Below are positions 12,001 through 33,000 of a stretch of 64,000 nt of DNA, one piece after another (the first letter of the stretch is position 1; each line of letters opens with the position of its first letter). Origin of the DNA: Candidatus Omnitrophota bacterium (lineage in GTDB: Bacteria; Omnitrophota; Gorgyraeia; Gygaellales; Profunditerraquicolaceae); contig JASEHM010000001.1 in assembly GCA_030018895.1 (NCBI GenBank), positions 2,199 through 66,198 of the forward strand, read 5' to 3'. A program made the translations under genes and the position numbers. A model generated the notes under the pieces. That model ran no database searches and was not told the origin of the DNA. It was given only the letters and a program-made list of their open reading frames with translations.

Positions 12001-15000
12001 AATGAAGGTTATAACGCCATATCTCCTAATTATAATTGGTCATTGCAGAATGCAGTAAGTCTTTTAGGCGTGGCTCGGGTAGCTAAAAGATTGGATTTCC
12101 TTAAAAATATCTATACTGAAGAGATTAAGAATTCTAGTGTTAATTCATATAGCGCTGTTATACAGATGGTAGAACATGCAATAAACAATGAATCTGGCGC
12201 ATCTAAGAAAGGAAAGGCAAAATTGCCTTTAGAAGGCAGGCAGGAAATTTTAAGAAATGCTGAACATTTAAGAAATATGTCTAATGGTTCCAGAGGAGCT
12301 CCTCTGGCAAGGCAGACTCTCATTGATTCCATTTTAAAATATATCCCTGCCTCAAGTTCAGGCTATAATACGCTTAATCTAAGCAGCATCATAAATAATC
12401 AGTTTGTCCCGTCTCAGAACAGCCAATTTAATCCTATAAATGCTAATTATACAACCTTAGAGGATTATCAAAAGTTAGTTAGTCTCATAAATACAATAAT
12501 AAATTCTGAAGCAATAAAAGAAATACCATCCTTAGATACTGCCCCGATTAATCGATATGCTATTGCTGATGCATTAGTTTCATTAGTTAATCCTAATCAT
12601 ACGTATTCTTCATTAAACAGTGCTTTAGATACCTATAATTTACTTACAAAAGGAGCGCAAAATGCTTTGAATACCGCCATTACATCCAATTCGTTTGTAT
12701 TAAATATATTTTTAGCCCAGCACCAGGATGTTTTAGATGATTTAACCGACCTTGAGAAATATAGATATGCTACTGATGCCTTTAGATCTGTTATCACCAA
12801 AGAAAATTTATTCACCTCTAATCAAATAACCCGGTTAAATAAGATTACGGACAAATTTGTTAATATAATGATGAAGTTAATTAAAAACCGCGATTCACTC
12901 CAGATAGAAAAATACAGAGAGCCTACTAGCAGTCAGGTTAAGGGTTTTGTAACCCAATTATTAAAATCTTTTGACAACAAGACTAATTATTTAGCAGCGT
13001 ATCAATTACTCTTTTCAAAGGTAATGTATAAAGAACCCAAGATTAAGGAGTATTTAAAGGAACTTATACTAAAGGCTAACCGCGACCAGACAGATTTTGA
13101 GAAAGAAATTATATTGCCTGTTTATTATTCTTCCTTTAATAATGCAAGCCTTAAGGAATTTAGCGCTGTCAGGCTAGATGTTTTATTGACAAACTATTTA
13201 CAAACAGAAGTTGATGAAGAGAAGAAAGAGTTAGAACGCAGGTATCTTTTCTTAAATAGGTTGAATAAAGATAAAGTAGAATCTATTAAAAAATATCTTA
13301 AGAAGGCGCAAGATTCATTAGAAACAAAAGGCGAAGTATTGGAAAATTTCTCAGGTAGATATGAACAATTTGCAAGAGATGTTAGCGAGATCAACAGCGG
13401 CTATAGCGCAGTAGAAATGGATTTCCTTGCAGATATGCTAAAGGATAGGTATTACAGGAGTTATTCGGTAATGGCAGAGTTAAACAAAAATGCGAAAGAC
13501 AGGATCTTCGAATTGTTTGATAAGTTGAATATATCTTATGATAAGAACAGCATAAATTTATCCACAGCAATAAAAACAATGAATATGCTCTTGGAAGGTA
13601 ATAAAAACATCAGCGAACAGAACCCTGACTTGTTAAGAACTTTAAAAACCTTTAAGTGGATTGATTATCACACAGGCCTTAGGGATAAAATGGGTATCTG
13701 GTATGCGCCATATTTTAGGGCTGAAATGATGCAAAGGTATATGCAGGGGCTGATTGATTATCCGCAAGAGCTTTTAGATGCAAGAGAGGAGTTGCAGAAA
13801 AAGGTAAAAGAGGAAGTATTAACCGGAGACATAAGCAAGGAGTATCTTAAAGAAGTAGCGCCGACTTTAGTTAGAAGGCTTAAGGAAATTTTAGATGAAG
13901 AAGAACAGGTTATATCGAAGATAAAAGATAAGTCCAGACAAGAACGAAAGAATAAAGAAGAACAATTGCGGAAGGCAAAAGACGCACTTGGAGAATTTGA
14001 AAAAAATCTTGAACAGGAAAACGTTACGCTTGAGAAACTTTATGCAGGGTTTAAGCAAATCAACCAAACCAATAAATCTTTGGAAGTTGAAATTCTTCCT
14101 TTTGAAGAGCAGGAAAAACCAGAAATAAACGGCAGGAATGATGATTTTGGAAGAGGTGATATTACACCTAACTGGCTGATAAGGCTTAATCTTAAGTTAT
14201 TTTATGACCCAGCTAAAGGCAGAGGTGTTTTATTAAACCCAGGCGATTGGAGAGAAGATGTAAAAGGAGTAGCGCTTTTCCATGAAATTACCCATAGTTT
14301 CTGCGATTGGTTAGGTGAACTTTCAGGTATTGAGCGCCTGAAAATAGGTAATTCTGATAATGAAGGCATAATTGATTCCATAACAAAGAAAGATAATCTT
14401 GGTTCTATGACTCCGTTTGCGCGTAAGGAATTTTTTAAGTTTGGTGATTTGGAAGATAAAGATGGGAGTTTTGCAAAAAAGTTACAAGGAGCATATGATC
14501 TAACAAAAGGAATCTTTATGGAGAAAACCAATCAGGTATCCAAAGATATAAACGCTAATATTTTTCAAGACCATACGAAAACCCCTTCTTCTAAAGAAGA
14601 ATATACTAAGCTGGGTAAGTTACTTGTAGAACAAAGAAAACTTAGAGAATTAAAAGAAGATGTATTTAAAGGAGAAAAGACTGCTAAAGAGGTTGAAGAA
14701 CTATTAAATGATAAAAAAGAATGGCAGAAAATAATTGGACAAGAGGTAAGAGAGGCAAAAGACGATAAAAAACACAGTGCGCTTTGTAATGAAAATGCCC
14801 CTTCCTCTGCAGTATCTTTTACTCAACAACCTAATAAATCTGATATTGGCGCGGCGATTCAGGCGTGTTCTATGCCAATTGAGTTTGAAGATGAGATGAG
14901 GATGCTTTGGGAGGAGTGGAAGGAGCGGCTTAAAAGTATTATTCCCGCAATCTTTAATTTTAGAACAGCCCTTCTTCTTCCTCAGGGAATATTAGTAATT

Positions 15001-18000
15001 AGCTTAGATTTGGCTCTGAATCAGCAGAAAGAGCGGATATTCTTTGTGATACAAGGCAGAGGAGATGAATTAAAGGAGATTTATAAGAAATTAAGTGTCA
15101 GGACTCTTCGCAATGACGCGTTAACATCAAGAAGTAAAATTTTAAAAGCGGCCTTAGAGGCAATAATAAGATTTGAGGTAACAGTTCAGCCCCCGGAAGT
15201 AACCGTGTCATTGCGAGGAGCGGCAGCGACGAAGCAATCTCTGGTTAAAAGAAATAATAATGTAAAAGTGCCGGTAGCATCGCTTCCTTCTTCTCCGGCG
15301 CTACCAGCTGGGGAGAACACAACTACACAGGCAGGGACATTTATGGCAACAGGTGGCTCAGTTCTTACTGGAAACGCGCTTAATGGCACTACGTCAATAT
15401 ATCCTGCTATTCCGTACTCAATAAGCGTTTATCATTTAGGCAATAGAACAACACAGATTCCCATTAATATAGGTTCAGTAACTATACTTGGCCCGCCTTA
15501 TGGTCCTTCGACTGAAATTTACTCAATTTTCAGCCAAGGTTTTAGCATAAATGGGCAATCGAATCAACTATTTGGCGCACTTGTAACAGTTTGTTCAAGT
15601 AGCATGGCTTTAGATAATACTAAAACCGTAGGTTCTGGAGTTGCAAGCAGGGAAAGCAACAATACAGAAGATGCCCAAAGTGTAATCGCAGGTTCTGTAA
15701 ACGGAACTGGTGATGCTAGTAGTGCGATTATTAGAAAGGTACCAGGATTAAGATTACCTGAACCTTTAAGCAGGTTACCAAAGTGGCTTAATATTACGAT
15801 AGCGCCTCTTGGATATTCCTCATGTACTACGGGTTCGCCTAAAAAAGGCGCATCAGGTGTGCTTGGCAAGTTTTTGTTGTCTGAAGTTTTTTCTTTGGGT
15901 AAAAAGGACGAAGTTAGTGGTGCCGGAAGTGCGATTGCTGCTAAAAAGCAACTAAAGGCTTGGAGTCTACCTAATAGAGCAGATAAAACTTCGGGTCATT
16001 CTTTAAATGTAACCAATTCTTTTTCAAATAGAATTCCTGCAACATGCGGTTCGAATAGTTTCCAAGTTAACGATTTGGGAAATACAGGACGTTTTCTGGG
16101 TATAAACAACATAGAACTGAATTCAGCCGCTAACCATAAGGCACATGGATCAGCTCCTCCTTGGAATGTATTTAATTCTCTGCCCAATAAAATTTCCGCA
16201 TTATTATTTGCAAAATTCAACAATCGCCCCTTTAATCGCATCCTTAATATAAGCACCGGCATTCCATTAGAAGCGCTAGATTCAATTCTTTTCAATAAAA
16301 ATCTATTCGTAGAAAATAGCGGCACACAGGGTCATAATTACTTTAAAAATTCCGCAAGAAAATCTAACGTAACAGATCAACTTTTGAATGTATCTCGTCA
16401 TTGCGAGGGCAAAGCCCGAAGCAATCTCAAAATAGAGATTGCTTCGCCTTCGGCTCGCAATGACATCAATTATGTTAGTGATACTGTCATTGCCAGGAGC
16501 GACAGCGACGAAGTAATCCTTCTGTATGTCATTCCGAGCGAGGCCGTAAGGCCGAGTCGAGGAATCTATGTTCTTTTTAGATCCCTCGACTCGCTTTGCT
16601 CGCTCGGGATGACAAGACAACTGTCGCTCGCTCGGGATGACAAAGCGCTTCCGAAGGCTGAACTGTTACCTATCGCGGGATTTGCCGCAGGCACTTTTTC
16701 AGGCACTTTCACTGTTTCTGCTGATAATGATTTGAACATTCTGGCGGTAAAGGTAAATGATACTGCTTTGGTTAAGGTGAGCGGCAGCACAATAACCGCC
16801 CAGAAAAGTGTTTTCAAAATAGGGAATGACATTGTCATTGGTCATGTTCTCTCAGCGCAAAACCAGGAAAAAGAAAGTGGTTCCCCGATGGCAAAAGGTA
16901 TACCTGTTGAACCGCTGAACTTGGTTCAAAGAGAGTTAGAACTGCAGGCAGTCCAGATTATAAATTATTTAGCTAAAGTGAAGAAGGTAAATTTTGCCCA
17001 GGCAAAATACAAAATAATAATAGAAGCTTTAATGTCTATATTTGAGATTATTGGCGCAATAGAAAAAATTACTTGTCAAGGCCCTCCTTGGTCTGTCCTT
17101 ATTTTCGTTATTTTAAAAGGTCAGTATAATCAAGGAGGAAAAAATGTTGAAACTAATAGAATTTTAAAATCAGATGAGAACCTTAGAAACTCAATATGCA
17201 ATTCAATATTTGAACCAAATGCGCCAAAATTGTCATCTCTGGGAACAAAAGGAAAGACAGCTCAAAGCTCTCTTAAGCAGATCTCAAACAATGTCAAGGA
17301 AATTAAATATAACTATGGCATAATAGAGTTAAATTTCTTACTCGCTTTCGCCACTGTTTTATTAATCAAGCCGCAAATGCTATTTACCAAAACAGGTATT
17401 TTAGTGTTTGCGGTTTTTGTTGTTTCTAGCAGCCTCCCAGCGACCCCCCTCCTGGGACTGACCTTCGCTACGGAGCTGCTAGAGCAACAAATAATATTTG
17501 GAGGTGCGCTATGTGTCCTATTAAGTTTAATGAATTACAATTTAACCACATTGTTGAATCTGCAACAGGACCCACAGTCTTTGCAGCGGCTCGTGAAAAT
17601 GGCAGCAGACATTTCAGGCTCTTCCTTATTAATGAAGAAACTGGCAGTGTTAGAGTTCGTAATGGCAGTGCTAATACCTGGGAAGAGCTTTGGGGCAGTG
17701 CTCACGACAGTATCATCAACTGTCTTATTGCAAGCCGTAATAGCTGCATCCTCACTTATAGGACTAGAACAGGTTTCTAAGCGGTTTTTTTCTCCGTGGG
17801 TAATTATAGGGATGTCTGGTATTGCTGGTGTTGGCATAGGTTTTGTTTCAGCAAATCCGGTTCTTTTAAATTTCGTAATTGGAATAGTGGCTGGTTGGTT
17901 ACTTATACGAGAAATAAATAAAAATGTATCCCAAAGACATTTACAATCTTATAGAAAAGCTTCAACACCATGGCCTTTCCTAAAAATTGCTGTTCCTCTT

Positions 18001-21000
18001 TTAATGATTTTTTATGCCTGTTCTGACCTTCTTGACGATAAATTTTTGAAAAATAGAGAATTTATAAGAGGTCCAACCGTAGAATTGGTTCTTGATGTTA
18101 ATAAGGATGGAAGAGGAGATATTCGTATATCTTATCCGGAAAAAGATAAAATCTTTTCTAATGATTGGAAAGTACTGAGTGAGGTTCTTAGCGGCATACC
18201 TCCAGAAGATTTACAAAAAATAAAAGTAGTGGAACTTCGTTGGGAGCATGGTTCTTATAATTATCGTCCTGATTATAGCAAGAAAGAAGGAAAAACTCTT
18301 TATCTTACCATACAGAGTCTCAGACATTATGAGTGGGATAATGGTTTGAATATTTCTATTGACGGCAGCCCTAAGGTGGATGCTTTACGAAAACAGATTG
18401 AGGAGTGCCTTAAAACTTCCAGCTCCGTTACCTCAGATAAACGTATCTTGAGCCTGTTTGATCTTGCAAACAACAGACGAAGAGCGCAAGTAATAATCGG
18501 TATCTTAGGTATTACTTTACTTTCTTTCTTAAAAATAGCTCCTTCTGTTGCCGCAGTGCCTGAGGCAGAACAAGTTTTAAGAAACCCACCTGTAGAGATA
18601 TTTTCTCATCATACCTCCACTGTTACGCCTGTTTTTCCATTAGAATCAGCTCAAGAAAAATTTTCTGATGATGAAATACATCAATTCTCTACATTTGAAA
18701 AATTTGAAAAAATAGATGAGTTTGAAAATGTTTTGACCAATTATAGAAGGAAGAATGAAGGGTTTAACAAATTATATAAGGAAATAATTGAAGAAAAAGG
18801 CGTTGAAATTGTCTTCTTAAATAAAGATTTTGGTTTTCCTGCTGAATATAGGGTGTGGGAAAGAGAAAATGGAACAATTTTGTTTGATTTGCCCCAGTTT
18901 AAAAGTGGAGAGGAAATGGTTGTTGCCCTGGCACAAGAGTTATTCCATGCAGAGCAATTTATAGGAATAGCCCAGAAGACAAAATGGATTTCTTTCGTGC
19001 CCTTACGTTTATATTTAAGGGGTTTATTCTTTAGTGTGGAAAATGCATTTTTTGGAAGGGTATTTTTTGAAAAACCCGCCTTTGATTACGCTGAGAAAAT
19101 TAGAAAAGATTTTGGCTTACCCCAGAAAGATAAGTGGGAGGATCTGGAAAGATTTTATCAATTTCAACGACCAATGGATATTGTAAAGCCTTTCGTTGCA
19201 TTATTCCTATTGGTGGCATTAATGGGGCTTGGATATTGTTTTGTATATTACTTTGTAAAGAAAAATAACTTTTCATTAAATACCTTTAAAAAAGTAATAG
19301 TTCAGCTCTTGGAAGCGTCTCGTCGTCATTGCGAGCGACCGAAGGGAGCGAAGCAATCTCAAAAACGTGATTGCTTCGTCGCTGTCGCTCCTCGCAATGA
19401 CAAAATGCTTCCAAGCGCTGAACTGTTACTTAAAAAAGGAAATACCTCCAGCTCCATTACCACAAACTTTATAGAGGAGATAGTAAGGTTTAATGAAGAT
19501 TTGGAGAAAGCTGAAAATATTCCGTATTTAGTAAAGAAAGATTCTTGTTCTGTTGGTTCTCCGATTATGGGTAAGGCGGGCTCTTATTTAAAACACGTCA
19601 TATTTCAACAAAAAGGATATTTAGTAATTCTTGCTTTTGTTGTTGCTTTTGCCGCAGCATATTTGATGTCTATCCCTGCTGGAAGTATAGCTGCTTTATA
19701 TGAGGCGGGGGCTGCTAAACTGATTTTTTTACAAAAATTACAGTTGTTCGGTTTGTTTATGGCTTGTATTACTTTGGCAGTAATTATGCTTCAGTATTCC
19801 TTTACAGCTGTGATAGGAGTTATGAAAATCAAGAAAGGTAAAAATGCAGTATGGAGATATAGCTATAGAGAAATCTTCGGTAAAAAAGATTACCAGGCCT
19901 GGAAATCGCGTCTCAACTATGGAGCGCGTCGTTTGACGTTTGAGTATTTAAAGAATAATTATAAGCCTGTTGAGCATGGCCCGGTTCGGGATATTATAAA
20001 TACATTTAAGAGCTGGAAAGTTTCAGTGATAGTGTTTCTAATAGTTTCACTTGTATTAATTACCGCTCCGGAAGCCGTACTAGGATTAGCGGTTTTTGTA
20101 AATGCTCTGATTGTTACCTTACTTTTTCGGATATTACTAAATGCTACGATTTGGTTCTTCTATGATTCCTTCCCGCGCCGTACTGCATTAGTTGACCTGG
20201 CATATGCGTATTATAAAAAAGATCTATCAGGTGTTGCCAATAAGTTTATAGTAATAGATGAGAATAATCCTGATGGCCGAGCAATAATCTTGACAGACAT
20301 TGAAAAAGAAGCAGATAAATTCAAAGCTGAACTTAGAATCGGGAGCAAAGGTTACCGTAGGCAGCTTTTTGTTACCCGGTTAATAGAAATGGCTCCGCTT
20401 GAATCAGCAGGGCTCAAGTTTGTGAAAAGCAGGATGACAATTATCCTGCTTAGCGCGATCATTGTCCCTGCGCTTATGCTGAAGTTTATGCCGGGAATGA
20501 GCAGCGAATCATTCCTTTCGGAAGGATGGCTGCAAAACTTCTTTATAAAGTATCACTTTCCTCATACCTGGAGCGAGCTTATGCATACGGCGTTCCTTGT
20601 ATACGGGTTCAGGTACTTTGATTTAAAAAGAATAGCTATGATGATCTGGTCAGCAATGCTGAATAAAGTCTTTCCGGGTATGCCTATTGATATAAGCGCG
20701 GCTTATGATTTATATAAAAGGAAAAATAATGATAAAAACGTGAAGAAGTATCTTAAGCTTGCGCTTGAAAGAGGACTTTTAAACTCCTGGGGCAGAAAGA
20801 ATTTGAAAACGATATTGCGCAGTGAAATGGAAATGAACAAAGTTGTATTTGAAAAAGTAGGTAAGTTTGAGCTTGGATGGTGGGTAATCTCTCGCCTAGT
20901 GGCAATTATCATTACAGCGTTTGTATTTATACCCTTGATCCCTGTTTTTGTCGTTTTTTATCCTTACGTTGCAGGAAAGAGAAAACAGGGAGTAAGAGTT

Positions 21001-24000
21001 AACCCGTTGATTAAACTTGCGGCTCAAGAAGGAAAGCAATTCTGGGCAAGCCTTGTTTATATGTCAACGATAAGCGCGGAAATAAGCGCAGTTATAAGCG
21101 GAACAGATTGGTTGGCTACGCATGCGCATCCGATTTTAAAGCCGTTTGGTTTTATAGCCCAGAAATTTGCCTATGCTTTGGAAAGTGAGTATGGCATTAT
21201 ATCTCTCGGCCAATATGCAAACTTAACCTTTACCGGTATGACGAATATTGACCTTACTAATGTGGCATATCACTGCATGGGAGGAAAAGGAGATTTTCAG
21301 GCAAATTATGAAATTAATGCGGCTTTTGGCTTAATCCAAGAAACAAAGATAAAGGAAGAAGCAAGAAGAATTGTAAAAGAAATATCGGAATTAGAGGCTG
21401 AAAAAGAGCTAAAGTTTAGCCAGCAATATAGGCTTGAGGAATTAAGGCATAAGCTAAAAGATATATTTGCTTTGGCTAAGGCTAAACAATTAGAGGAGGA
21501 GGTAAAGAGGCTCAATGACTCAGCTAAACCCAGACAAGGGAAGACGTTTGCTGATGTGGAGGAAAGGTTTAATGAGTTAAAAGGGCAGGGATTTCCTGGG
21601 TTTGATCCTGTTAATGGGGATGAGCCCTGGGTTAAAGAGGTTAAGGGATATTTAGGGCAATGTAATTCTCAGCAACTCCAAATTTTAGAATCTTTAATCA
21701 AATCAGGCAAATTAAGAGCTGGGCCTGATGAAAAGTCAGTTTTTTACGGTGCTAATAATGGCGAAATTATTCTTATTGACATCAATAACAATCCTGATTT
21801 AGCCGCAACTTTAATATACGAACTTAATGCCTTCCAAGGTGGCACTCCTGAAGAAAATCAAAAGGTAGAAAGAGAATTTGAGATTGCTTCGCTCACCAAG
21901 GACGCTCGCAATGACGAAAAGAAAGCGGACGTTCGCAATGACGAGGGGGCGCAAAATGCGGACGCTTGCAATGACGTGGGGGCACAAAATGCGGTCGCTT
22001 GCGATGACGAAAAAAAAGTTGACACTTGCAATGACGAAAAGGCGCAAAATGCGGTCGCTCGCAATGACGAGGCGTCTCTATCAGGCATTAATTGGCAGAT
22101 GCCTATACAAGGATTTGACCCTAAAAATATACTGTCTGAAGATGAATTTAACGCTCCTCGCTCTGGGGGTAATGGCCATGAAGGCCTTGATTTCCGTGCT
22201 TCTGAGGGCACACCTATTCACGTAGCTGAACAGGGGATAGTTTTTTATGCAGGAGAAGGGAATGGTTATGGAAAGGTAGTTATTATTAATCACAATAATG
22301 GCTATTTTACTTTATATGCCCATAATCAAGAAAATCTGGTTAAAATAGGTGATAAGGTAGAAAAAGGCCAGAAAATTGGCCTGGTAGGTAAGAGTGGTAA
22401 TGCTGAGCAAATTGGAGAAATGTTGCATTTTGAGATACGGCAGGTGGCTAAAGAAGGAATTATTAAGGAATATTCAGATTTGGTTGCTTCGGAGAATGAA
22501 GAAAATGGTACAGTTAAAATTTTAGATCCTGCAAAAGAATTAGAAGCCCTATCAGAGAAGCCGCAATTAATGGTGGATATGATGATGTTTTCGGGGAATA
22601 GTTATCAGCATTCTTTTTTAAATATACCAGTAGATGAATATCTTGTTAATAGTTATCTTTTGGGTGTTGAAGAAGAATATTCAGACTTAGTTGCAAAAGA
22701 GAATGAAGATAATAACACAGTTAAAATCCTGAATCCTGCAGAGAAACTTAGCGGACAAGATCCAGATAATGCCTATTTTGGCTGGTCCCATGAAGAAGTA
22801 AATAGAGAGATGAGTAAATATGCAAGGGAAAATGCGATAAGAGAGCCTAATTTTGAAGAGAAGAGGTTGATTGAGTCGGCTTTAGGCAAGGCTTTAAGAT
22901 ATTTTAGCAAGACTAATTTGGGCAGGAACCCGCCAGGGGTTAAGATTATTGAGACAGAAAAATTAACCTTTGGCGCAACTTATGGTGAATACAATCAAAC
23001 CACTTCTCAAAATAGCCTCCTCTATATAGAAAAGCCGCTTATTAACAGTCCTAAATATAATCTTGCCTGCGTATTTATCCATGAACTTAATGGAAAATCT
23101 CATTTCTTAAACTGCTTAGCAGAGTATGATTTTAAATTAAGACAGATTGGAGCAGAATTTAGCTTACAGGTAAGTTTATCTCTTGATTCTCTGGCTAAGA
23201 ATTACCAGGAAACAAAAGCCAACTTTAGCAGAAATACCAAAAACACCATTATTGCCACTGCTCTCTTAGCCAGTCAAATTATCTCTCAGTTTTCAGCTTT
23301 TGCTATTCCTGCTGTAGAAGCCGCCCCTTCCGCAGTACACAGGGTGGTCACCCCAGAAACTTATACTGTTCGGAAAGGCGATACATTATGGAGACTTTTT
23401 AAGGAAAAATGGAATGATATTTATCAGTTGAATCCTCAGATTCAGGGCCGCAAAGGCGAGAAAATAGACCCTGCATATCCTGATACTAAGCAAATAGTAA
23501 TTATCTATCCAGGGGAGAACATTAAGATACGCGGGGAACAGGAACAGGTTAAAGCATCTATAGATAAGACTAAGATAGACAGGGAAGAGGTTAAAGTATC
23601 TACAAAAGATAAGACTGAGACAGACAAGAAACAAGTTTCAGAAGTAAATCAGGGTGTCATTCCCACCCCTGTTTTCACGGGGGTAAACTCCAGCGGGAAT
23701 TCAAGAGGGGATGACAGAATGGATGCCCGTTTTCACGGGCATGACAAAAACAAGAGGCGAGAACTTCAGAAAGCTGAACTGTTACAGATAAAAGGAATTA
23801 GACAGGAAGGAATCAGCCCAACCTGTGCGCTTGAACAGGTTTTTGGCCAGGGTTATCAGAATTGTCAGCAAGAATTGGAAAAGAGATTTAATACCTTGGT
23901 TAAAGAATCAGGGGTTGAAGAAAAAGGGATAAAATACCATGAAGAAGGCCTGACTTTGGAGGATTTGAAGGAGAAATATTTAGAAGGTAAGCGCTGGAAA

Positions 24001-27000
24001 GAGGCAATCAAAAAATTATATGATAATAAAGAGGGGTTATTCGCAGTTTTGGTTTCTATGCAAAAAGGGGAGAGATGGCAGATAATGAAGAGTTTTGGAA
24101 CACATATTGATTTCCGTGAATTCGTGGATAATCCTAATCTTAAGGTTTCTGTATATGAATATCCGGCTTTAGGTGAGAGAGGCAATGAATTTGAAAGAGG
24201 GAGAAAATTAAATGCAGCAGAGGTTCGTGAGATTGAAAAAGACGGCATTCCTAAGATGGTTTTTGTCAAAGGCCAGGATGAGCAAGGCAAAGAATTTGAA
24301 TATCTTTTAATGACAGGTATTAATGCGGCTTTAGCAGTAAAGGAAATAAAGGAATCCTATGTTTTTAGCCGGAACTTGTTATTAAAGGCAACTAAGATAT
24401 TAAGTATGAATAATCCTGCAGAACAATTTGAGGCAATTAAAAAGAGCGGGTTATCGATTCTTAATATGCCCTCTAAGGTTTCTTCTCGCGCGTTTATGGC
24501 CGTAGAGGCAGAAAAGGATCAATACGGTAATTATAAAGGCATCAGGCGTTTTTATACTGAGGATGAAATGCATGCAAAGAGTAATCCGCAAGAAGGCGAA
24601 AGCATGGTTCTTTATGAGGGAAGAAATAAGGCGGGTGTTGCCAGGGCTTATGTTTATGAAGGGAGTAGCGGAAAATTAAGGCATAAACTTGTGGCTGGCC
24701 AGGCTGATGTAACTGTGTTAGTTGTAGACGGTACATTCAAGGATAAGCCGCAATTAGGCAATCAGATATTATTTGGCCGTAATCAAGCTGAATATAATGT
24801 GGCTTTAGCAGGTATGGGGCTTATTTTAAGCCAGTATCAGGAGAAAAATATCAGCTTGGCGCAGGAAAAAATCAAAAAGGATAAAACACTAGAGGGTGTT
24901 TTGGCAATAACTAATATCGTAGGCGGCGCATATGGCTGGGCACCTGCAAACATAGTAACTGGCGCAGGCAGGTTCCTGTATAATCTTTTTGTCAGCCGTG
25001 AATATCAGCCTCAGGCGCCAACAGTCTTAGAGCTTCAGGAATTAGTGGGAAATTATCTTAAGGAAAATTATCCTCAGGAAGATATCCAGGGTTTCTTAGG
25101 TAAGGTTAATGAGAAGGAAATTGAAGGGCTCCTGAGGTATGCTCAAGGCCAGGAGAATTTTGCTAAATACCAGTTATTTTTCAGCCTCCTGGCAGATGCA
25201 GCAAAGGCCGCAGAACTTAGCCGTTCAGGAATCCTTAAAGATATCTTTGCTAATCCGTATTTCTCTTTACCTGGGGCAAGTGTAGATGTCAAGAATGTTA
25301 TTGCTTCTGTTGTAGGCGAGAAATCAGTTATCCTGGGCAAAGGATCAAGTCTAAAAGACCTTTCAAGAGGCATAGGCGAGAATTCAAGCTGGATGCAATT
25401 CTTTGGCATAGAAGTAGATGCTGCTGCCTTTATAAATACCTTAAGCGATTTGGCAGGCAGGGATGTCAGCCAGAGGCCGCTTCCTTATCGGCCCAGCCTG
25501 TCTTCTTTGGCTGCTTATGAAATCAGGGCTTTTGGTTTTCCGTTTTTAATATTTGCCAAAGAGAAGATGCTGGAAAAATATGGCCAGGCATTTGAACAGG
25601 CATACGCGTTTAAGGTTAATGCGGGTTTTCCGGATAAATATGAGAGCTATACTATGGATCAACTTGATGGCTTAGTTGAGCAAAGAATAGTAGCGCCTGT
25701 GGGTTATATCAAGGTTCCTGGACCAGACGGGATAGAGCGTGCTTTGCTGCCGGTTTTTGCGCATAAAGACGGCGGCATTATTGTATATGGAGAAGAGGCT
25801 TATAAGGAACAATCTGAAAAGATGAAACGGGCTTTAGAGAGATTTGATCGTTATGCAAAAGGCCTGGACCAGGGTATGGTAATTACTAAAATTGAAAAAT
25901 CCATTCAGCCGATGTCCTTAGAAAAACGCGAACCGCAGATTAGTTTAGATGTCAAAGATAAGGAGCAGGCAATAAACTTACTAAAGTTGTTTTTAGAATT
26001 AAGGGATTTAGAGAGTGAAAAGAATATAACTTCCGAGGATAAGCAGAGGTTGAATGAAATAAAGGTAAAATTAGGCAATAAAAAACTTATTGATTATGAT
26101 ACGGAATTTTTTAGCAATTTCCGTTATCAGGATGAAGAAGGAAATGAAATAAGGGTAAGCATTATCTATTCCCTTCAAGAGTCAATCAGGGATCAGGAAA
26201 GGGCGAAAGAGAATCTAGAAGTGATAAACAATATTGGCAGAATGTTTAAAGAAGATGGCGGTGTTCTGCTTAATCAGGCTATAGTAAACAGTAGGGGTGA
26301 GTTAAAAATCGGCCCGCTTTTAAGAGACAGCCAGGATAAGATATCAGGCGTAAACATCGGCAAGGAGAGTTTAGAAGGGATTTTAGCTAAGATAGCTGAA
26401 TTGCCTAATAAAGAACAGGCGCAGATTCAATTTAATAATTTTAATCGGTTTATTCTTAATTTAAAAATAGGCGGCAAAGAGGAAAAGGTTTTTGTAACAG
26501 CAGTATTTCCTTTAGATAAAGAGATACGAAGCAGGTCTATTAATCCCCACAGCGGCAAAGAAGAGGTTAATATTTATAAAGAAGGTTTAAAGAGATATAC
26601 CATAGATAGGACGCGTATTACAGCCTATTTGTATAATCAATACCGTATAGAGGCTGAAACTAAACTATTTAAGAATCCTTTAGGAGTTAATTGGCAGGAG
26701 AAGGTATTAAAAGAGAATATTCCTATTGAGCCGTTAATAGAAAATCAATTAAGCATTGGCCGGACAGTAACTACAGAGTATTGGCTTAGAGATTTAGGCC
26801 TTGCGAATATTAATCCTGATGCTCCGATAATTGCTAAATTATCCGGTAATTTTAAAATCGGAGAATTTAGCAAGGATATTTATGGCCTATATTTTTATCC
26901 AACAGAGAAAATAGACGGCCGCTATATTACTAAGACAAGGTTTAATGACTATAGCATTATTAGATCTGCTATAGCATTAGACAATAATGGCAGTATACTC

Positions 27001-30000
27001 AATCCTGTTCCTGGCAAGCTAAGATTTATCTTTACCTCAACTATCCCTATAGATGTATTAAAAACCCTCTGGAATCTAAAGCCCTATGGATATAAAACCC
27101 CGGTGCAAAGACTTGATGTGATTAAGGATTTATCTAAGAATATTATTTTTGACAATGCCAATTACGGAAGAAAGGCAGAAGAATCCTATGCAGATTATTT
27201 TGATGGCACAAGGACGTTTAAGGTAAAGGTTAAATATGGATATCATGAGGATTTTGCATCTGGGCTTATACCCTGTATTAGCCGTATGCATAGTGTTGAT
27301 ACCGGCGAATTCTTAGCTGAGGTTTTAACTATCGGCTATAATCCTCTGACTCGCTACCTTATAGGCAGAGAAAGAGATTATAAAGGCAAAGTTACTATAA
27401 AAGAATTTGATTACCGCTGGGAGGCGCCAGTTAAGGCTAAGAGCGAGGATGGAAAGTGGGCTACTAAGTTTGCCCATAACAGAGAAGAGACTTACACTGA
27501 GGCGATCACTTATTATAATGGGATTGCAGTGATTCCTTCTGTTTTAAATTATAAAGACGGCCGCTGGGAAAAGGATGATCAGCTCTTTCATTGGGGAAAA
27601 GATGGAATTAAGGTTCCATTAATTAAAAAGAGCCTGCTAAGCTCTTATGGAAAATTGATTTGGGAGGAGAGTTGTTTTAAAGACGGTATATTCCGCAGAT
27701 ATAATCCGGGATATGATGCAAGCGGAAAAGAATTTGCCGGCAAAGGCTTTAAATTTGATACGCAAAAAAAAGATTGGGTGAATGAGCTTGATTATTTTAA
27801 TTATCGCTATAATCATGGAGAAGTTAGCATGGAGTGCATGGAATTGCACAATAGAAATAAAACCGATACCCTTGTTTTTGATGCGCAAGGCCGGGTAAAG
27901 GGAGAAATAATAACTCTTTATATATTAGAGAGTGGAAGGCTTATCCCTAATTGGGAATTCAAAGAGGAGGATAAGGATAAAGTTATTGGGACTGCTTTTA
28001 TAGAGGTGTCTTATATCTATGATGGCTCTATCCTAAATTGTCCGCTTATTGCTGATAGAGGCAAAACAGTAGTTTATGGCAAGATAAACGGGGAAAATTT
28101 CATGATAAATTGGAGTAAATCAGAGGCCGAGGATTTTAAAGATGGCTTCCTTGCCTTGAAATTGGAAGATCTTTTGTGGGGAAAAACCTGGTTTGAAACA
28201 ATGGACCTTTTAACCCGTAACAGAATCCATAAGGCCTGGTTTAAGCTTCCGGGAGGAATTAAGGTAGAAACAAGCTATTTTTATGAAACTAAATCTGTGC
28301 CAGGCGCTAAAAGGGATCTGGCTTTTTATGATAAAGCCTCAAAATCTGAAACCGAGGTTATTTTCTCTGATGGCACAAAACAGGAATTTTACGATTTAAA
28401 TGGCTTGCCCACTACTACATTTAACTCTTCAAAGGCCATAGATTATAACCCTAAGACAGGAAATTTAACTGCGCAGCTCATTGATCATGCTGGCGGCTAT
28501 ACTGATCCTTTAGTTCATCAGGAGATAAAGAATAACCGCGACCAAGTAGAAAAAATTATAAGAGGGAGCTTAAAAAAGAATAAATTTATTCCTGAGGAAA
28601 AAGAGGTTCAAGAATATAAAGGTATTCCGGGATTAGTTAATATACCCACTCTTAATCACGCAACACCCGTAAGCCCGTACCCATTTCCTAATGATACCTT
28701 ACAAAAAGTAGAAAGTAAATCCTGGGTCATAGGTGATGACGGTAAAAAGGTTGATATCTTGAATCCAAAAGCGCTTGAGCGGATAATTGATTTTCAAGGA
28801 AGGATCAGGTATCAGAAAGAAGATACATATAAAGTCTTTGATGAAGGCAAGTGGATAGAAAATACTTTTCGCTCTCAGGTGGTTAAAAACAAATACGGTA
28901 ACCCCGAAGAAATCTCATTTTTAGATGAAAATAAAAATATCATGTCTACACTTTATCTTTTCTATGAATATAGTAAGGATAAAATAGGCCAGTTAAATAG
29001 AGCCCAGTGGAGCAGGGTGGTAGTATTTGATGGAAAACGCCAATATATCTTTGCCGCTGCTAATTGTACGCAATTAGACAGAAAATCAGGAGAGCTTTAT
29101 TTTAAGGTAAAGAAAGGGTTGGAACTAAAAAACATAATAAAAGATGGCCAAAAAAGAATAGCTCATATTTCTTCAACGGGTGATTTATTAATTTGCCGAA
29201 ATGGCCTAACCTATGAAGATTTAGCAAAGCTGCATAATAACCTGGTTAACTTCTTTACAGTAACAGCCTATGATGAGGTTCAAAACAATCGCGGACAGCC
29301 AATAATCATAAAAAGCGGCCACTCTAAGATAAACAAACAAACCGGTTTTGCTGAAGGCGATCCTTGCTGGATTGATTTCTCACTTTATCCAAAATATCCC
29401 TATATCCCATTTAGCCTGGAAAGCTACACCTATAGATGGAATAAAACCAAAGGGAATGACTCTACAAACTACGCTCAACCTACCTGGTGGGCAAGGAATG
29501 TTGCTTCTCTCCGGAGAGATATTGATAGGTGGCAGGATAGTGATTGGGTTGCAATGACTTATGATTTAAGCACTGAGAAGGATGCTGAGGGTAGCTATTA
29601 TATGAAGTATAAAGTTATAGACCACAGATACGGCCCGTCTTTAATTTATAAAGCTAATTTATTCGATGGTAGAAAATTGTTTGAAGAATACAAAGGCAAA
29701 CCTGGAGAATCAGATAATATAAGGGTATATTATTCTGAAAATGAAATTTCTAAATATACTTTGGGTATTAACAAAGATGGCACATCGGAAATCTGGCGGT
29801 ATTATAAATTGGCTGCAATGAGAAACGATGGCCATAAATACCTAATTTTTGAAGAAATTGATCCTTTACGCGATAAGCACTCTTGGTACTATTGGCTGAG
29901 CAAGCAGATTTATCCGGAGTTGAGCTGGAGAGTAATTCGCGATGGTGTCTTTTTCGCACGCATCGATAAATGGGACTACTCTACAGAAGAATATAAGGGA

Positions 30001-33000
30001 AGCAGAAATCTTAACGATGATGTGGCGAATAGTATGCTATTTAGGTTATTTTCTGCCCATAGAGAACGTGTTAAAGAAAGTAGGGAAATTAGAGATGTGG
30101 CTTTAGATCAAAATAATTTTGTAATGATTGATAGTGGTAATAAGATGCAGTGGGATTTAGATAAGGCATGGCATAATCGCATAGACAGATTTTTGCATTC
30201 TAATGCTATAGTGGGATTGGTAATTGGTTTCATTGTTTGCTGGGTGTTTATTATGTGGTGGATATTGAAGTTATTTGTGCCTAAGGTGAATATTAACTCA
30301 GCAGATAAAGAAGAGCTGACCCAAGTATTTTCTCCACATGATGCTGGCAATATTATTTCTCTCAGAACAAAACTCGATGTTATAAAGAATATATCAGAGC
30401 TTGAAGGAGAGGACAGAGGAATACCTATATTTAGAGATATAACAGTCAAGAAAATAAAGAGAAAAATTCGTTTTGATGAAAAAACAGGAGGTATCACCAA
30501 CATAGCAATAAACGATCTCAGGAATACTACGCTTAAGACACTGTCAAATACTATTCTTGAGCCTGTGGCGGGGTATATCAACGATCTTATTGAACAGAAA
30601 TTTATTACTTTAGGAGAAGTAGAAAATATAATACATGATTTAGCGCGTAAACTATTTGAAAATGTTCTTCCTGTAGAGTTGGTAAGGGCGAAATTATTAA
30701 GCAAGATATTTATGCGCGCTTATTGGGATGATAATTTACTTTTTAAGAATAGTGTAAGAGAAAGTTTGCGAGTATCAATAGAGGGTATCTTCCGGAGAGT
30801 TGGCATGCCGATGTCGAAAGAGTCTGTCGACCTATACATTAATGAAATCATCCAGGAATTTTCCACGCAACGTCCTGGAGAATTTGTGTACCAAAATGAC
30901 AGAAGTAAATATAAAGACAGTAATAAACATGAAAGCGGTGATAATCTGTCGCTCAATACGCATCTTTGGGTTTTTGATCCAAAAATGGGCTTCCAACTGA
31001 TTTCATTGGAGGATTTTGTACTGCAATATAAAGTCGTCTATACCATGGTTCCTTTCTTCGGAGGCCATACGCCTGTAGTTCGTTGGTTCGCAATAGAGAT
31101 AAAGAAGCTCTTGGAAAGCAAGAGAGATAGTGAGGTAAAACCGTTCCTACAAGCACATCGTAAGTTTTGGTATCAGGTGCTAAAAGACCAATTAGATAAT
31201 AAATGGGAAAATATGCGCGATGACCGTAGAAAAGGGCCTGCGTATAAAGATGAAAAGACAAAGCAATGGCAGTATCTTTTAACGTGGGAAGAGTTCAATG
31301 ACCTATTCCGCTATTTATTAGAAGAAGATGATTATGGCGCGCCACTTGCTTTTAAGGATACCGCTGAGTTTTTGGCATACAAGAACAATGTTATGGAAAA
31401 TGTAATTAATAAGATTTACGTTCCTGTACAAACAAACGCCTCCAGTCCCTTTACAGATAGTATGTCTAAAGAAGAAATACAGGATTTAGGGAGCACTTAT
31501 CTCAAGTCATTTATCCTTTACTCAAGAGAGAATTTAGGAATACCTCGTTATGATAGAGATACATATAAAGAGAATGATAATCAAAGCAGATTATGGAATA
31601 AGATTAGGCAATATATTCCTATTGTTAGAAGATGGAGGAGTCCTGAACGAGGCGAATTAGGAGTGTGGGCATTTGTTGCGAGTAAGCTCCTATTTAATAA
31701 GAAATTCTGGAGCCAGGACAAACGAGATGAAAAAAGAAAATTAGGCGTCGAGAAAAATGAGGCGATTAGCAAGATTCCTGTTTGGTTAAGAATAGTTTTG
31801 TATATGGTATTATCGGCACTAAGTATTTGGTTAATCCCTTCATCTTTAAATATTGTTGGATTATCTTTAACCTTGCCCTGGTGGCTGAAGGGCATATTTT
31901 TTATTGCAATTGTCGCTACGGCAAGGCTTTTCTTGGGAGAGCGCACTTTAAAATCCCGCCGGTCATCCTTATTCTGGGGTGCAGTAAGTATAGTAACGCT
32001 CGGATTTATTGTTTATATCATTGGATTTGTTGCGGTCAATTGGATTTTTATGCCAATTCCTTTTGAAATTAACCTGTTCAGCTTAACTCTTTATCTGCCT
32101 TGGTGGACAAAGGCCGTTTTAGTTGCTCTATCAGTCTCACCTTTTCTGGATATGTTTTTTCTTACCTATTTCTCTATAGCAAACTTAATGAAGGCAGGTG
32201 TACGATGGTACATAGGTTGGAAATATAAGTTTTATAAAGTTAGGACATTTGAACAAGCAATGCAAATTTTACCAGAGATTCTAAAGAATAAAGAGAATTG
32301 GAATAAGTTTAAAGATATTGTGGATGATTATTATGAAATATATCGTCTGACAACAGCCGAACACGGTATGTTTATTAAGGTTTTAGAGGATATTCAGACG
32401 AATGCTTCTAGAAAGGATAACGAACCCAAAGAAATTAAAAAATTAAGGATTAAAATTACAGAACAGGAAATCAAAGATTTTGTAAATAAGAAATTCCGTA
32501 AAGATATGTCTTCCGAACCAAGAGACCTTTCTGAGTTGCGTTCTTTTGTAATACAGATAAGTGGTTTTGGCGAAGCTCCGTATTTCCTTTTCACGGATAT
32601 TAATAAGCTAGATGCAGGCAAGATTCAGACCCAACTGGGGATGTTTGCTAAATCTTATCCTGACCAGTGGCAGGTGTTTGTGGAGAGATTGGAAGAAGAG
32701 AAAAATATCATTAATGAAAAACAAAAGCAAGAATTATTGAAACTAATTGAGAATCCCGATTATGTCCTTAAGTTGTTTAATGACGCAGATTCACAAAAAG
32801 CAAGAGAAAAAATTGAAGAGTGGTTTAACCTGAATATACAGTCAGGTTATGCCAATATAAAATCAGCACTTAAATTAAAAGAAGTATACAAACATTATAT
32901 AAAGAAATTTGTTCCTGGCTTGGATGACGTAAAGGTTGAAGCTTTAGTAAATGATTATCTCCAGTTTGTTTTTATTTATGATCAATGGGCGCAAGAGATA

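Follow-up and report, generated by a model that had tools for sequence, protein, structure and literature searches.

M23B, or LytM-type, peptidase domains are directed at murein in all of the characterised cases cited, and broad specificity is known for some M23A enzymes such as beta-lytic protease; activation of the hydrolytic water has been proposed as the role of the first His of the HxH motif (PMC9662197). In C. jejuni Pgp3, His216 and His247 were described as strictly conserved and central to catalysis, the H247A variant is catalytically inactive, and the authors regarded either His as capable of abstracting the proton (PMC6978369). In classical degenerate LytM factors one or more of the zinc ligands are missing, and the crystal structures contain no zinc (PMC8416486). 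ActS lacks two catalytic residues and has no peptidoglycan hydrolytic activity; it activates AmiC, and its function requires both its LysM and the Asp of the Zn site (PMC9238320).

Giant proteins of the Omnitrophota, the "Archaeovorins", have been tied to cell-wall degradation in a preprint that also suggests that their peptidase domains might cut them into smaller polypeptides, and a cultured relative is a predator of an archaeon (bioRxiv 10.1101/2023.11.21.568195). Degradation of prey walls by giant Omnitrophota genes has been proposed mostly from lists of domains. The window analysed here, 64,000 nt of a Candidatus Omnitrophota contig (JASEHM010000001.1), is a single ORF of more than 21,333 codons (nt 1..63999, + strand) that is open at both window ends: frame +1 contains no stop across the window, against 726-2205 stops in each of the other five frames. 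Pfam domains lie in-frame along its whole length, together with 38 hydrophobic segments, and by its size, transmembrane (TM) segments and characteristic domain set this multi-domain, multi-pass membrane protein is of the Archaeovorin type. It also encodes sigma-70, GGDEF, histidine-kinase/receiver, PEP-utilising and glycosyltransferase domains; with these and dozens of hydrophobic segments in one ORF, the "giant surface protein" of the original prediction is too simple a description. We focused on the region around an M23 domain and a LysM-like piece, whose nearest relatives are Omnitrophota giant-gene fragments.

The M23 domain itself was correctly recognised. It lies at nt 22174..22446 (+; aa 7392-7482), where the match to Pfam PF01551 reaches 98.9 bits (cutoff 28.7, E 1.9e-28) over profile positions 2-90 of 96, within the open frame that spans the window. 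PDB alignments, motif columns and NCBIfam models agree with this assignment: 40 PDB M23 chains match the domain at E <= 1e-3, the best being C. jejuni Pgp3 with 60 bits. The HxxxD motif is present as predicted (H7393-E-G-L-D7397, nt 22177-22191) and supplies the His and Asp zinc ligands. The mid-domain His, equivalent to LytM His260, is kept as H7441 in LYAHNQ, in a column that is His in 81 of 84 aligned sequences, and the second His of HxH, also a zinc ligand, is kept as H7476 in MLHFE (His in 83/84). All three zinc ligands (His, Asp, His) are thus conserved. The original prediction had staked itself on the survival of these residues on alignment (the H of HEGLD, the D and the H of HFE), and the ligand loss that was to count against it did not appear.

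The original prediction of an apparently intact domain with HxxxD and HxH is otherwise not borne out, for the HxH is incomplete. The sequence at this position reads M-L-H (in G-E-M-L-H-F-E), so that the first HxH His is replaced by Met7474, which aligns to Pgp3 His247 (GEMLHF vs GPHLHF), the residue that is Ala in the deposited Pgp3 variants. The active-site pentad is therefore H-D-H-M-H (H7393, D7397, H7441, M7474, H7476). Met is the commonest residue in this column (44 of the 84 aligned sequences), and an intact zinc site combined with a substituted first HxH His is found in roughly 13% of the M23 domains most similar to this one. Because Met7474 occupies the place of Pgp3 His247, and H247A is inactive, catalysis may well be impaired. 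Residual or altered activity is nevertheless plausible, because the mid-domain His is kept and, according to the Pgp3 authors, either His may serve as the base.

When the M23 domain was ranked against NCBIfam models, the amidase activators ActS (76 bits), DipM (72), NlpD (69) and EnvC (62) came ahead of Pgp3 (60), ShyC (54), ShyA (50) and MepM (48). These scores are far under the full-length equivalog cutoffs (ActS 76 vs 375, NlpD 69 vs 311, EnvC 62 vs 270, DipM 72 vs 740), so the ranking is a similarity trend at the domain level only. Read in this way, the nearest named families by score appear to be the amidase activators ActS, DipM and NlpD. The YAHNQ and MLHFEIR signatures are also those of the JGI-named NlpD proteins among the matches, which carry N or S at the His of HxxxD and have an NlpD-type pentad N/S-x-H-M/K/Q-H. 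One of the five active-site residues has been lost here (the first HxH His, now Met), by a substitution seen in many NlpD-named matches. The zinc site of this domain has lost none of its three ligands, and the layout of the activators, a small envelope protein that starts with a LysM or coiled coil and ends with a LytM domain, is not found.

The LysM-like piece predicted about 900 nt downstream is a real but divergent LysM domain, located at nt 23362..23529 (+; aa 7788-7843) and beginning 916 nt past the end of M23. It stays under the Pfam cutoff of 20.9 bits: in context, 12 of the 43 positions of PF01476 are matched with 13.9 bits, and the isolated segment reaches 20.4 bits over profile positions 1-27 only. 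Its pair of start and end motifs occurs once in 21,333 aa, with ~0 expected. An hhalign comparison with canonical LysM gave 97.8% probability (E 1e-12, 44 columns), a score somewhat inflated by the choice of the LysM units through a start-motif regular expression. Homologous units in three relatives pass the Pfam cutoff (P0088 30.4, P0119 26.6 and P0086 21.6 bits). An insertion of 13 residues lengthens its alpha2-beta2 loop in the domain of this ORF. An AlphaFold (AF2) model built from an alignment of 5 sequences only has a pLDDT of 75 and the elements E3-6, H13-27, H29-32 and E57-60; its Foldseek matches in the PDB are almost all LysM, with a probability of up to 0.99 and a TMq of 0.56, and with every E-value at least 0.06.

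M23 is flanked by two paralogous modules with a zincin-like fold, which we call module X. Copy 1 (nt 21520..21897, +; aa 7174-7299) matched no Pfam family, is 45-56% identical to modules in Omnitrophota giant-gene fragments, and in the family alignment has the motif LIYELNAFQGG, in which Tyr replaces the His of the HE motif. Copy 2 (nt 22762..23151, +; aa 7588-7717) has the motif FIHELNGKSHFLNCLAEYDFKLRQ. Neither copy contains a canonical HExxH, the corresponding residues being YELN and HELN. For these flanking modules the closest relatives come from Candidatus Omnitrophota MAGs, as partial proteins, with one labelled Desulfobacteraceae. The zincin-like structure model also resembles the membrane-associated zincins BlaR1, HtpX and Ste24.

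A tandem-repeat linker of 33 bp x 4.7 copies (nt 21925..22072, +; TRF score 135) lies directly before M23 and encodes 11-aa units rich in Cys, Asp and Asn, and another of 45 bp x 2.2 copies (nt 23541..23637, +) directly follows LysM. A local duplication at nt 22468..22740 (+) consists of 66-nt direct repeats (22468-22533 and 22675-22740, 79% identity) that encode EYSDLVA.ENE..N.TVKIL.PA, which corresponds to the C-terminal tail of M23 and a second copy of this tail.

The relatives have a conserved backbone cassette that runs from a zincin-like module through a hydrophobic segment to LysM. P0086, P0091 and P0119 carry this cassette without any M23, and two of the three share a common junction (query ~295 to ~711); here M23 sits between the two zincin-like modules, with tandem-repeat linkers on the flanks. 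From these alignments M23 appears to be an optional insert in a conserved zincin-like/LysM cassette of Omnitrophota giant proteins. Because three relatives carry LysM without M23, LysM is not specifically coupled to M23. The original prediction had called the pair typical of peptidoglycan endopeptidases, but the arrangement is not that of the classic adjacent LysM-M23 pair: the order is reversed, and about 300 aa, including a zincin-like module and a hydrophobic segment, intervene.

A further relative, P0088 (MDD5044839.1, annotated as [quoted passage not shown], from a Candidatus Omnitrophota MAG), is a giant-gene fragment in which a zincin-like module, M23 and LysM follow each other in the same order. 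Its M23 is 42% identical to the one described here and has the same MLHFE and the same loop length (2 residues longer). Conservation of the Met and of the longer loop in a domain that is only 42% identical argues for a maintained state and not for recent decay. P0088 differs in several respects. It has just one zincin-like module and lacks the hydrophobic segment ahead of LysM; its linkers are rich in Pro, Thr and Val where this gene has tandem repeats; and its LysM, from which the 13-residue insertion is absent, passes the Pfam cutoff.

We tentatively favour, with a probability of roughly 0.45 and on the basis of sequence comparison, the reading that this region serves for murein docking or regulation, with catalysis impaired, and is not an autonomous lytic endopeptidase. 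It would form a variable accessory block within the conserved Omnitrophota giant-protein cassette. Its M23, with a kept zinc site and mid-domain His and a Met at the position of the water-activating His, would, like NlpD, ActS or DipM, function chiefly as a LytM domain for murein binding or regulation. M23 and the downstream LysM could together dock a TM-bounded stretch of ~3,000 aa onto peptidoglycan, either the cell's own sacculus or that of a bacterial target, and M23 may in addition position or activate a separate hydrolase. Several observations count against this reading. The zinc ligands are all kept, unlike in the classical degenerate LytM factors (PMC8416486), as is the mid-domain His, and about 13% of close M23 domains likewise combine an intact zinc site with a substituted first HxH His. 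Domain searches found no amidase domain in the window, so that no partner is seen there for an activator-like function, and the NCBIfam ranking rests on scores far under the family cutoffs. The signal-anchor-like charge pattern of the hydrophobic segment between M23 and LysM, like the K/R-rich stretch after the last strong TM helix, also sits less well with it.

The main competitor is an active DD- or glycyl-endopeptidase of peptidoglycan that LysM would bring to its target and that would cut prey or host walls, or the cell's own sacculus so as to accommodate the giant protein. In our view it is unlikely. The M23 match is strong, with three zinc ligands and the mid-domain His in place, and either of the non-ligand His residues has been proposed as general base (PMC6978369); HDH-x-H, found in about 13% of close M23 domains and in P0088, may be a working variant, and the succession of M23 and LysM recurs in P0088. 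The preprint's link between giant proteins and cell-wall degradation (bioRxiv 10.1101/2023.11.21.568195) also fits. Against it stand the Met at the first HxH His, where an equivalent Ala inactivates Pgp3, the non-hydrolytic activators as nearest named families, and the three relatives with LysM and no M23. Domain searches over the whole 21,333 aa detected no peptidoglycan-hydrolase domain other than M23, so no further lytic domain accompanies it. The prey of the cultured relative is an archaeon without murein. Prey-wall degradation, one of the roles that the original prediction considered for such genes, is possible, but the residues do not favour it.

The docking or regulatory reading places M23 and LysM on the same side of the membrane. 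The last strong transmembrane-type helix before the region lies at nt 20899..20955 (+; aa 6967-6985; Kyte-Doolittle 2.92, rough insertion sum -1.1), and the next one found in the hydrophobicity scans at nt 30208..30264 (+; aa 10070-10088); they bound a stretch of ~3,084 aa that holds both domains. A K/R-rich stretch (4 K/R) right after the first of these helices hints at the cytoplasmic side. Between module X/M23 and LysM there is a moderately hydrophobic, signal-anchor-like segment (nt 23248..23316, +; aa 7750-7772; KD 1.58) with 3 K/R before it and 1 after. Its rough insertion sum is +4.2, compared with -3.3 to +1.0 for clear TM helices, and it is marginal as a membrane span. Equivalent segments are found in P0086, P0091 and P0119. 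In P0088 no hydrophobic segment interrupts the succession of X, M23 and LysM, which supports one shared, probably extracytoplasmic, compartment, and we infer that the M23/LysM stretch lies outside the cytoplasm.

Were the segment at 23248-23316 a true span, M23 and both zincin-like modules would be cytoplasmic and LysM alone outside, and M23, cut off from murein, would be a protein-protein interaction fold or a relic. We regard this topology as improbable. Its signal-anchor-like layout, with the 3 K/R, about 23 hydrophobic residues and an A-x-A-like end, its counterparts in P0086, P0091 and P0119, the four K/R directly after the last strong TM helix and the resemblance of the zincin-like model to BlaR1, HtpX and Ste24 would all suit it. 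Both hydrophobicity measures leave the segment marginal, though, P0088 does without it, and that the zinc site and the Met variant are conserved is at odds with a relic.

A more ambitious version of the regulatory reading is somewhat more doubtful still. Here the whole block, from the first zincin-like module through M23 (H-D-H-M-H) and the second module to LysM, would be a self-contained regulatory hub, in which a zinc-loaded, non-hydrolytic LytM domain binds murein stem peptides and switches on either a hydrolase or the zincin-like modules next to it. If so, the logic by which NlpD acts on an amidase would be found, in cis or in trans, on one giant polypeptide of a predatory or episymbiotic bacterium, and the modules would represent a previously undescribed zincin-like domain family with a HELN motif. 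It is very improbable that the substrate of M23 and the zincin-like modules is protein, such as the giant polyprotein itself, which they would cut into pieces: the preprint suggests cleavage of giant proteins by peptidase domains (bioRxiv 10.1101/2023.11.21.568195), two zincin-fold modules flank M23 and some M23A enzymes such as beta-lytic protease are broadly specific (PMC9662197), but YELN and HELN are not canonical HExxH motifs, M23 lacks one catalytic His, the characterised M23B/LytM-type domains cited are all murein-directed (PMC9662197), and a LysM at the end of the cassette points to glycan binding.

This case illustrates how a list of domains can mislead, since the sole domain of murein-hydrolase type in 21,333 aa is without one catalytic His and most resembles non-hydrolytic activators. 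If the pattern is general, part of the "cell-wall degradation" signal of giant genes may reflect wall docking or the regulation of hydrolases. The analysis also flags an uncharacterised zincin-like module as a conserved partner in the cassette. Its value lies in a sharper annotation and a testable hypothesis, and not in a new principle.

Among known systems, the Archaeovorins (bioRxiv 10.1101/2023.11.21.568195) are matched in the giant ORF with many TM segments and, by comparison with the preprint text, in the domain set (GT5/GT1, GGDEF, HATPase_c, receiver, PEP-utilising/PPDK-like and helicase). The main text of the preprint names peptidases and an SLT-like domain, and never M23 or LysM. The active M23B endopeptidases (Pgp3, E. 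coli MepM, V. cholerae ShyA, and S. aureus LytM and lysostaphin) share the fold and the profile with our domain, which has also kept their HxxxD, mid-domain His and zinc-ligand HxH His; the differences are the Met at the first HxH His (Pgp3 His247) and a preceding loop that is 2 residues longer. The LysM-LytM activators (E. coli NlpD and ActS/YgeR, Caulobacter DipM) are lipoproteins of ~250-400 aa, whereas the ORF here exceeds 21,000 aa, its zinc ligands are all kept, its LysM follows on the C-terminal side at a distance of about 300 aa and is part of another cassette, no amidase partner is seen in the window, and the scores fall far beneath equivalog cutoffs of 311-900 bits. It is with these activators that the domain shares its top NCBIfam similarity (69-76 bits), the YAHNQ and MLHFEIR signatures, a residue other than His at the first HxH position, and the co-occurrence with LysM.

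Frame +1 has no stop codon across 63,999 nt, against 726 to 2,205 stops in each of the other five frames; the window is therefore the interior of a single ORF of more than 21,333 codons. Within it we found a PF01551 match at nt 22174-22446 (98.9 bits, cutoff 28.7), and this M23 domain matches 40 solved M23 chains, the best being C. jejuni Pgp3 (60 bits). The HxxxD motif (H7393-EGL-D7397) is present, as is a mid-domain histidine (H7441, within LYAHNQ), and every zinc ligand named in the original prediction is conserved on alignment. The domain had also been called apparently intact, with an HxH motif, and this part does not stand: the site reads G-E-M7474-L-H7476-F-E, with methionine for the first histidine. 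In the HMMER alignment, Met7474 falls in the column of Pgp3 His247, where the wild type has GPHLHF and the deposited variants have GPALHF. His247 and His216 are described as strictly conserved and central to catalysis, and H247A serves as a catalytically inactive variant (PMC6978369). A review of M23 peptidases describes the first HxH histidine as a non-zinc-ligand whose proposed role is to activate incoming water (PMC9662197).

The best-supported reading, to which we give a probability of roughly 45%, is a LytM domain that keeps its zinc site but is catalytically impaired; with a LysM of the protein backbone it would help this part of the giant protein to dock onto murein, and it may also regulate a hydrolase. 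An active endopeptidase, as first proposed, would agree with the conserved zinc ligands and less well with Met7474, and we consider it unlikely, if the strongest of the alternatives. Apart from M23, Pfam detected no murein-hydrolase domain in the 21,333 aa, whether amidase, SLT, NlpC/P60 or of another kind, so the window adds little evidence of its own for a wall-degrading machine.

The five active-site residues (H7393, D7397, H7441, M7474, H7476; canonical HDHHH) were compared with those of other M23 domains. Among 84 aligned sequences from a word-indexed search, H-D-H-M-H was found in the window alone; 24 were canonical and the remainder mostly NlpD-named, with N/S-x-H-M/K/Q-H, and the window domain resembles the two groups to about the same degree (44-48% identity). 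In the 140 closest representatives from an exhaustive search, 265 M23 domains were counted. Of these, 132 carry HDHHH and about 35 retain the zinc site and mid-domain histidine with another residue at the first HxH position, which makes this a recurring variant. NCBIfam models of amidase activators scored 76 (ActS), 72 (DipM), 69 (NlpD) and 62 bits (EnvC), and those of active enzymes 60 (Pgp3), 54 (ShyC), 50 (ShyA) and 48 (MepM); every score is far under its full-length cutoff, and the apparent trend toward activators is one of similarity, not membership.

The LysM-like motif predicted some 900 nt after the M23 domain is present at nt 23362-23529 (YTVRKGDTLWRLFKEKWNDIYQLNPQIQGRKGEKIDPAYPDTKQIVIIYPGENIKI), starting 916 nt past the M23 end. 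On this segment the Pfam LysM profile gives 13.9 bits in context and 20.4 bits in isolation (cutoff 20.9; profile positions 1-27 of 43). The pair of LysM start and end motifs occurs once in the ORF, with about 0 expected from shuffles, and the segment aligns with two annotated LysM repeats of the protein P0084 and with units of Omnitrophota relatives. Three of the latter exceed the Pfam cutoff alone (P0088, 30.4 bits over 43/43 positions; P0119, 26.6; P0086, 21.6). A profile of five Omnitrophota units matched the canonical LysM of NlpD-type hits over 44 columns (97.8% probability, E 1e-12), values somewhat inflated by the choice of units with a start-motif regex. An AF2 model (pLDDT 75) gives strand, two helices and strand, with a low-confidence insertion; the structures it retrieved are almost all LysM (probability up to 0.99, TMq about 0.56, all E-values >=0.06). 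We conclude that the segment is a genuine LysM that has diverged, its alpha2-beta2 loop carrying an insertion of 13 residues.

GTDB representatives and JGI metagenomes yielded no close orthologs. Exhaustive HMMER searching with 1,200 aa (nt 20956-24555) returned 15 proteins below 1e-30, the best of which cover the flanks and not the M23 domain. The best relatives are 'partial' proteins, each on a contig that is a single ORF, and nearly all come from Candidatus Omnitrophota MAGs (e.g., MDD5044839.1, which is P0088, MFH0856098.1, MEW6170266.1, MBU2436343.1, MBU3933617.1); one is labelled Desulfobacteraceae. They share a module of about 125 aa, here module X, with the consensus ...GKLRAGPD...FYGAN...IIL-IATNNNPDLAATLIHELNA..G..H.EN..AE..F. 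and no matching Pfam family. Two paralogous copies (nt 21520-21897 and 22762-23151) flank the M23 domain, and copy 2 gave an AF2 model with pLDDT 81 and pTM 0.76. The motif is a true HEIHG in the relative P0126a, HELN in most and YELN in window copy 1; module X is thus modelled as a zincin fold whose canonical second zinc ligand is missing from most copies.

Three relatives (P0086, P0091, P0119) contain module X, a moderately hydrophobic segment and one or more LysM units in this order and no M23 domain; against the window, P0086 and P0091 make the same jump, from query ~295 to ~711. The M23 domain is best described as an optional insert in a cassette, and the LysM therefore as a backbone part and not a dedicated M23 targeting domain, which speaks against the pairing originally suggested. 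A captured NlpD-type gene as the source of the M23-then-LysM order was rejected, since the LysM belongs to the backbone. About 17 hydrophobic segments cluster directly before the region (nt 17014-20955, aa 5672-6985). P0086, P0088 and P0091 have comparable clusters ahead of module X, and the conserved unit may be a TM cluster, then the zincin-like module, then LysM.

P0088 has the order X, M23, LysM. Its M23 domain is 42% identical to that of the window over 108 aa, both having MLHFE and a preceding loop longer by two residues, which suggests a maintained Omnitrophota subtype. Two Omnitrophota MAG fragments, P0087 (M23 at ~aa 877-975) and P0238, carry another non-canonical form, PHLDFG, with the first HxH histidine retained and the zinc-ligand histidine changed to Asp. 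All three giant-gene M23 domains examined depart from the canonical pentad.

In-frame tandem repeats bracket the M23-to-LysM block: 33 bp x 4.7 copies between the X copies just before M23 (nt 21925-22072), encoding 11-aa units with a Cys in each (e.g., ADACNDEGAQN), and 45 bp x 2.2 copies just after LysM (nt 23541-23637), which are Lys/Glu/Thr-rich. These are probably flexible linkers, and their copy number may differ between strains. Also between the X copies, a 66-nt direct repeat (nt 22468-22533 and 22675-22740; 79% identity, 207 nt apart) duplicates the M23 C-terminal tail (EYSDLVA.ENE..N.TVKIL.PA) and may be the scar of a rearrangement that put M23 between two zincin-like modules. A segment of about 150 nt occurs twice in frame on the + strand, 19 kb apart (nt 23636-23787 and 42989-43140), with about 90% nucleotide identity, 77% protein identity over 52 aa and unrelated flanks. 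GTTTTCACGGG appears two times per copy, each time inside a short palindrome; the predicted RNA fold (-50.2 kcal/mol, z = -3.4) was equalled in 0/200 shuffles and the segment has no Rfam match. Candidate explanations are a repeat element, a structured site in the mRNA and a linker that was copied recently.

The region is bounded by strong TM-type helices (aa 6967-6985 and 10070-10088). A cytoplasmic M23, separated from LysM by a membrane span, would need aa 7750-7772, between X copy 2 and LysM, to cross; its charge pattern resembles a signal anchor, and its hydropathy is marginal (Kyte-Doolittle 1.58). Its rough insertion sum is +4.2; clear TM helices range from -3.3 to +1.0, and the equivalent segments of relatives from +3.3 to +4.0. 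P0088 has no hydrophobic segment there, and Pro/Thr/Val-rich spacers join its X, M23 and LysM. We favour a single extracytoplasmic compartment as the probable arrangement, and regard a cytoplasmic M23 as quite improbable. A protein-processing role for the domain seems very improbable.

Along the whole ORF, Pfam detected Helicase_C (nt ~11158-11475), Peptidase_M23, Glyco_transf_5, Glycos_transf_1, HATPase_c and Response_reg (nt ~42157-42969), GGDEF (nt ~44458-44940), Sigma-70 regions 2-4 (nt ~53722-54480), PEP-utilizers_C and four fucose-pyrophosphorylase-like stretches, all on the + strand, and a hydropathy scan gave 38 hydrophobic segments. The ORF fuses domains that usually belong to separate cytoplasmic proteins, and a complete sigma-factor core within a giant membrane protein is an oddity. 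A 19-residue stretch, AFAILGPLALVRWAILSGI, is identical at nt 36178-36234 and 38779-38835, 867 aa apart in the repeated fucose-pyrophosphorylase-like region, and points to a likely recent internal duplication of an enzyme domain. Other ORFs over nt 21900-23700, in alternative strands and frames, are 70-117 aa and low-complexity, and no Rfam family reached gathering score anywhere in the window. By its predicted domains, the ORF fits the 'Archaeovorin' giant-protein class of Omnitrophota (bioRxiv 10.1101/2023.11.21.568195). The main text of that preprint mentions neither M23 nor LysM, and neither do a 2026 complete-genome preprint and one supplement of it.

The giant-gene class is already described, M23 and LysM are ordinary domains, and the NCBI pipeline already labels relatives 'peptidoglycan DD-metalloendopeptidase family protein' and 'LysM peptidoglycan-binding domain-containing protein'. 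Only a little is new: an M23 subtype that conserves Met in place of His, the location of this domain with one copy of an uncharacterised zincin-like module on either side, and a LysM belonging to the backbone. Degenerate LytM factors are generally regulators (PMC8416486). ActS lacks two catalytic residues and has undetectable PG hydrolysis, and its activation of AmiC depends on both its LysM domain and its Zn-site Asp (PMC9238320). On the favoured reading, the window M23 would work by a logic like that of NlpD, ActS or DipM, but it falls outside these families, because its zinc ligands are kept, its architecture differs and its scores are far below their cutoffs.
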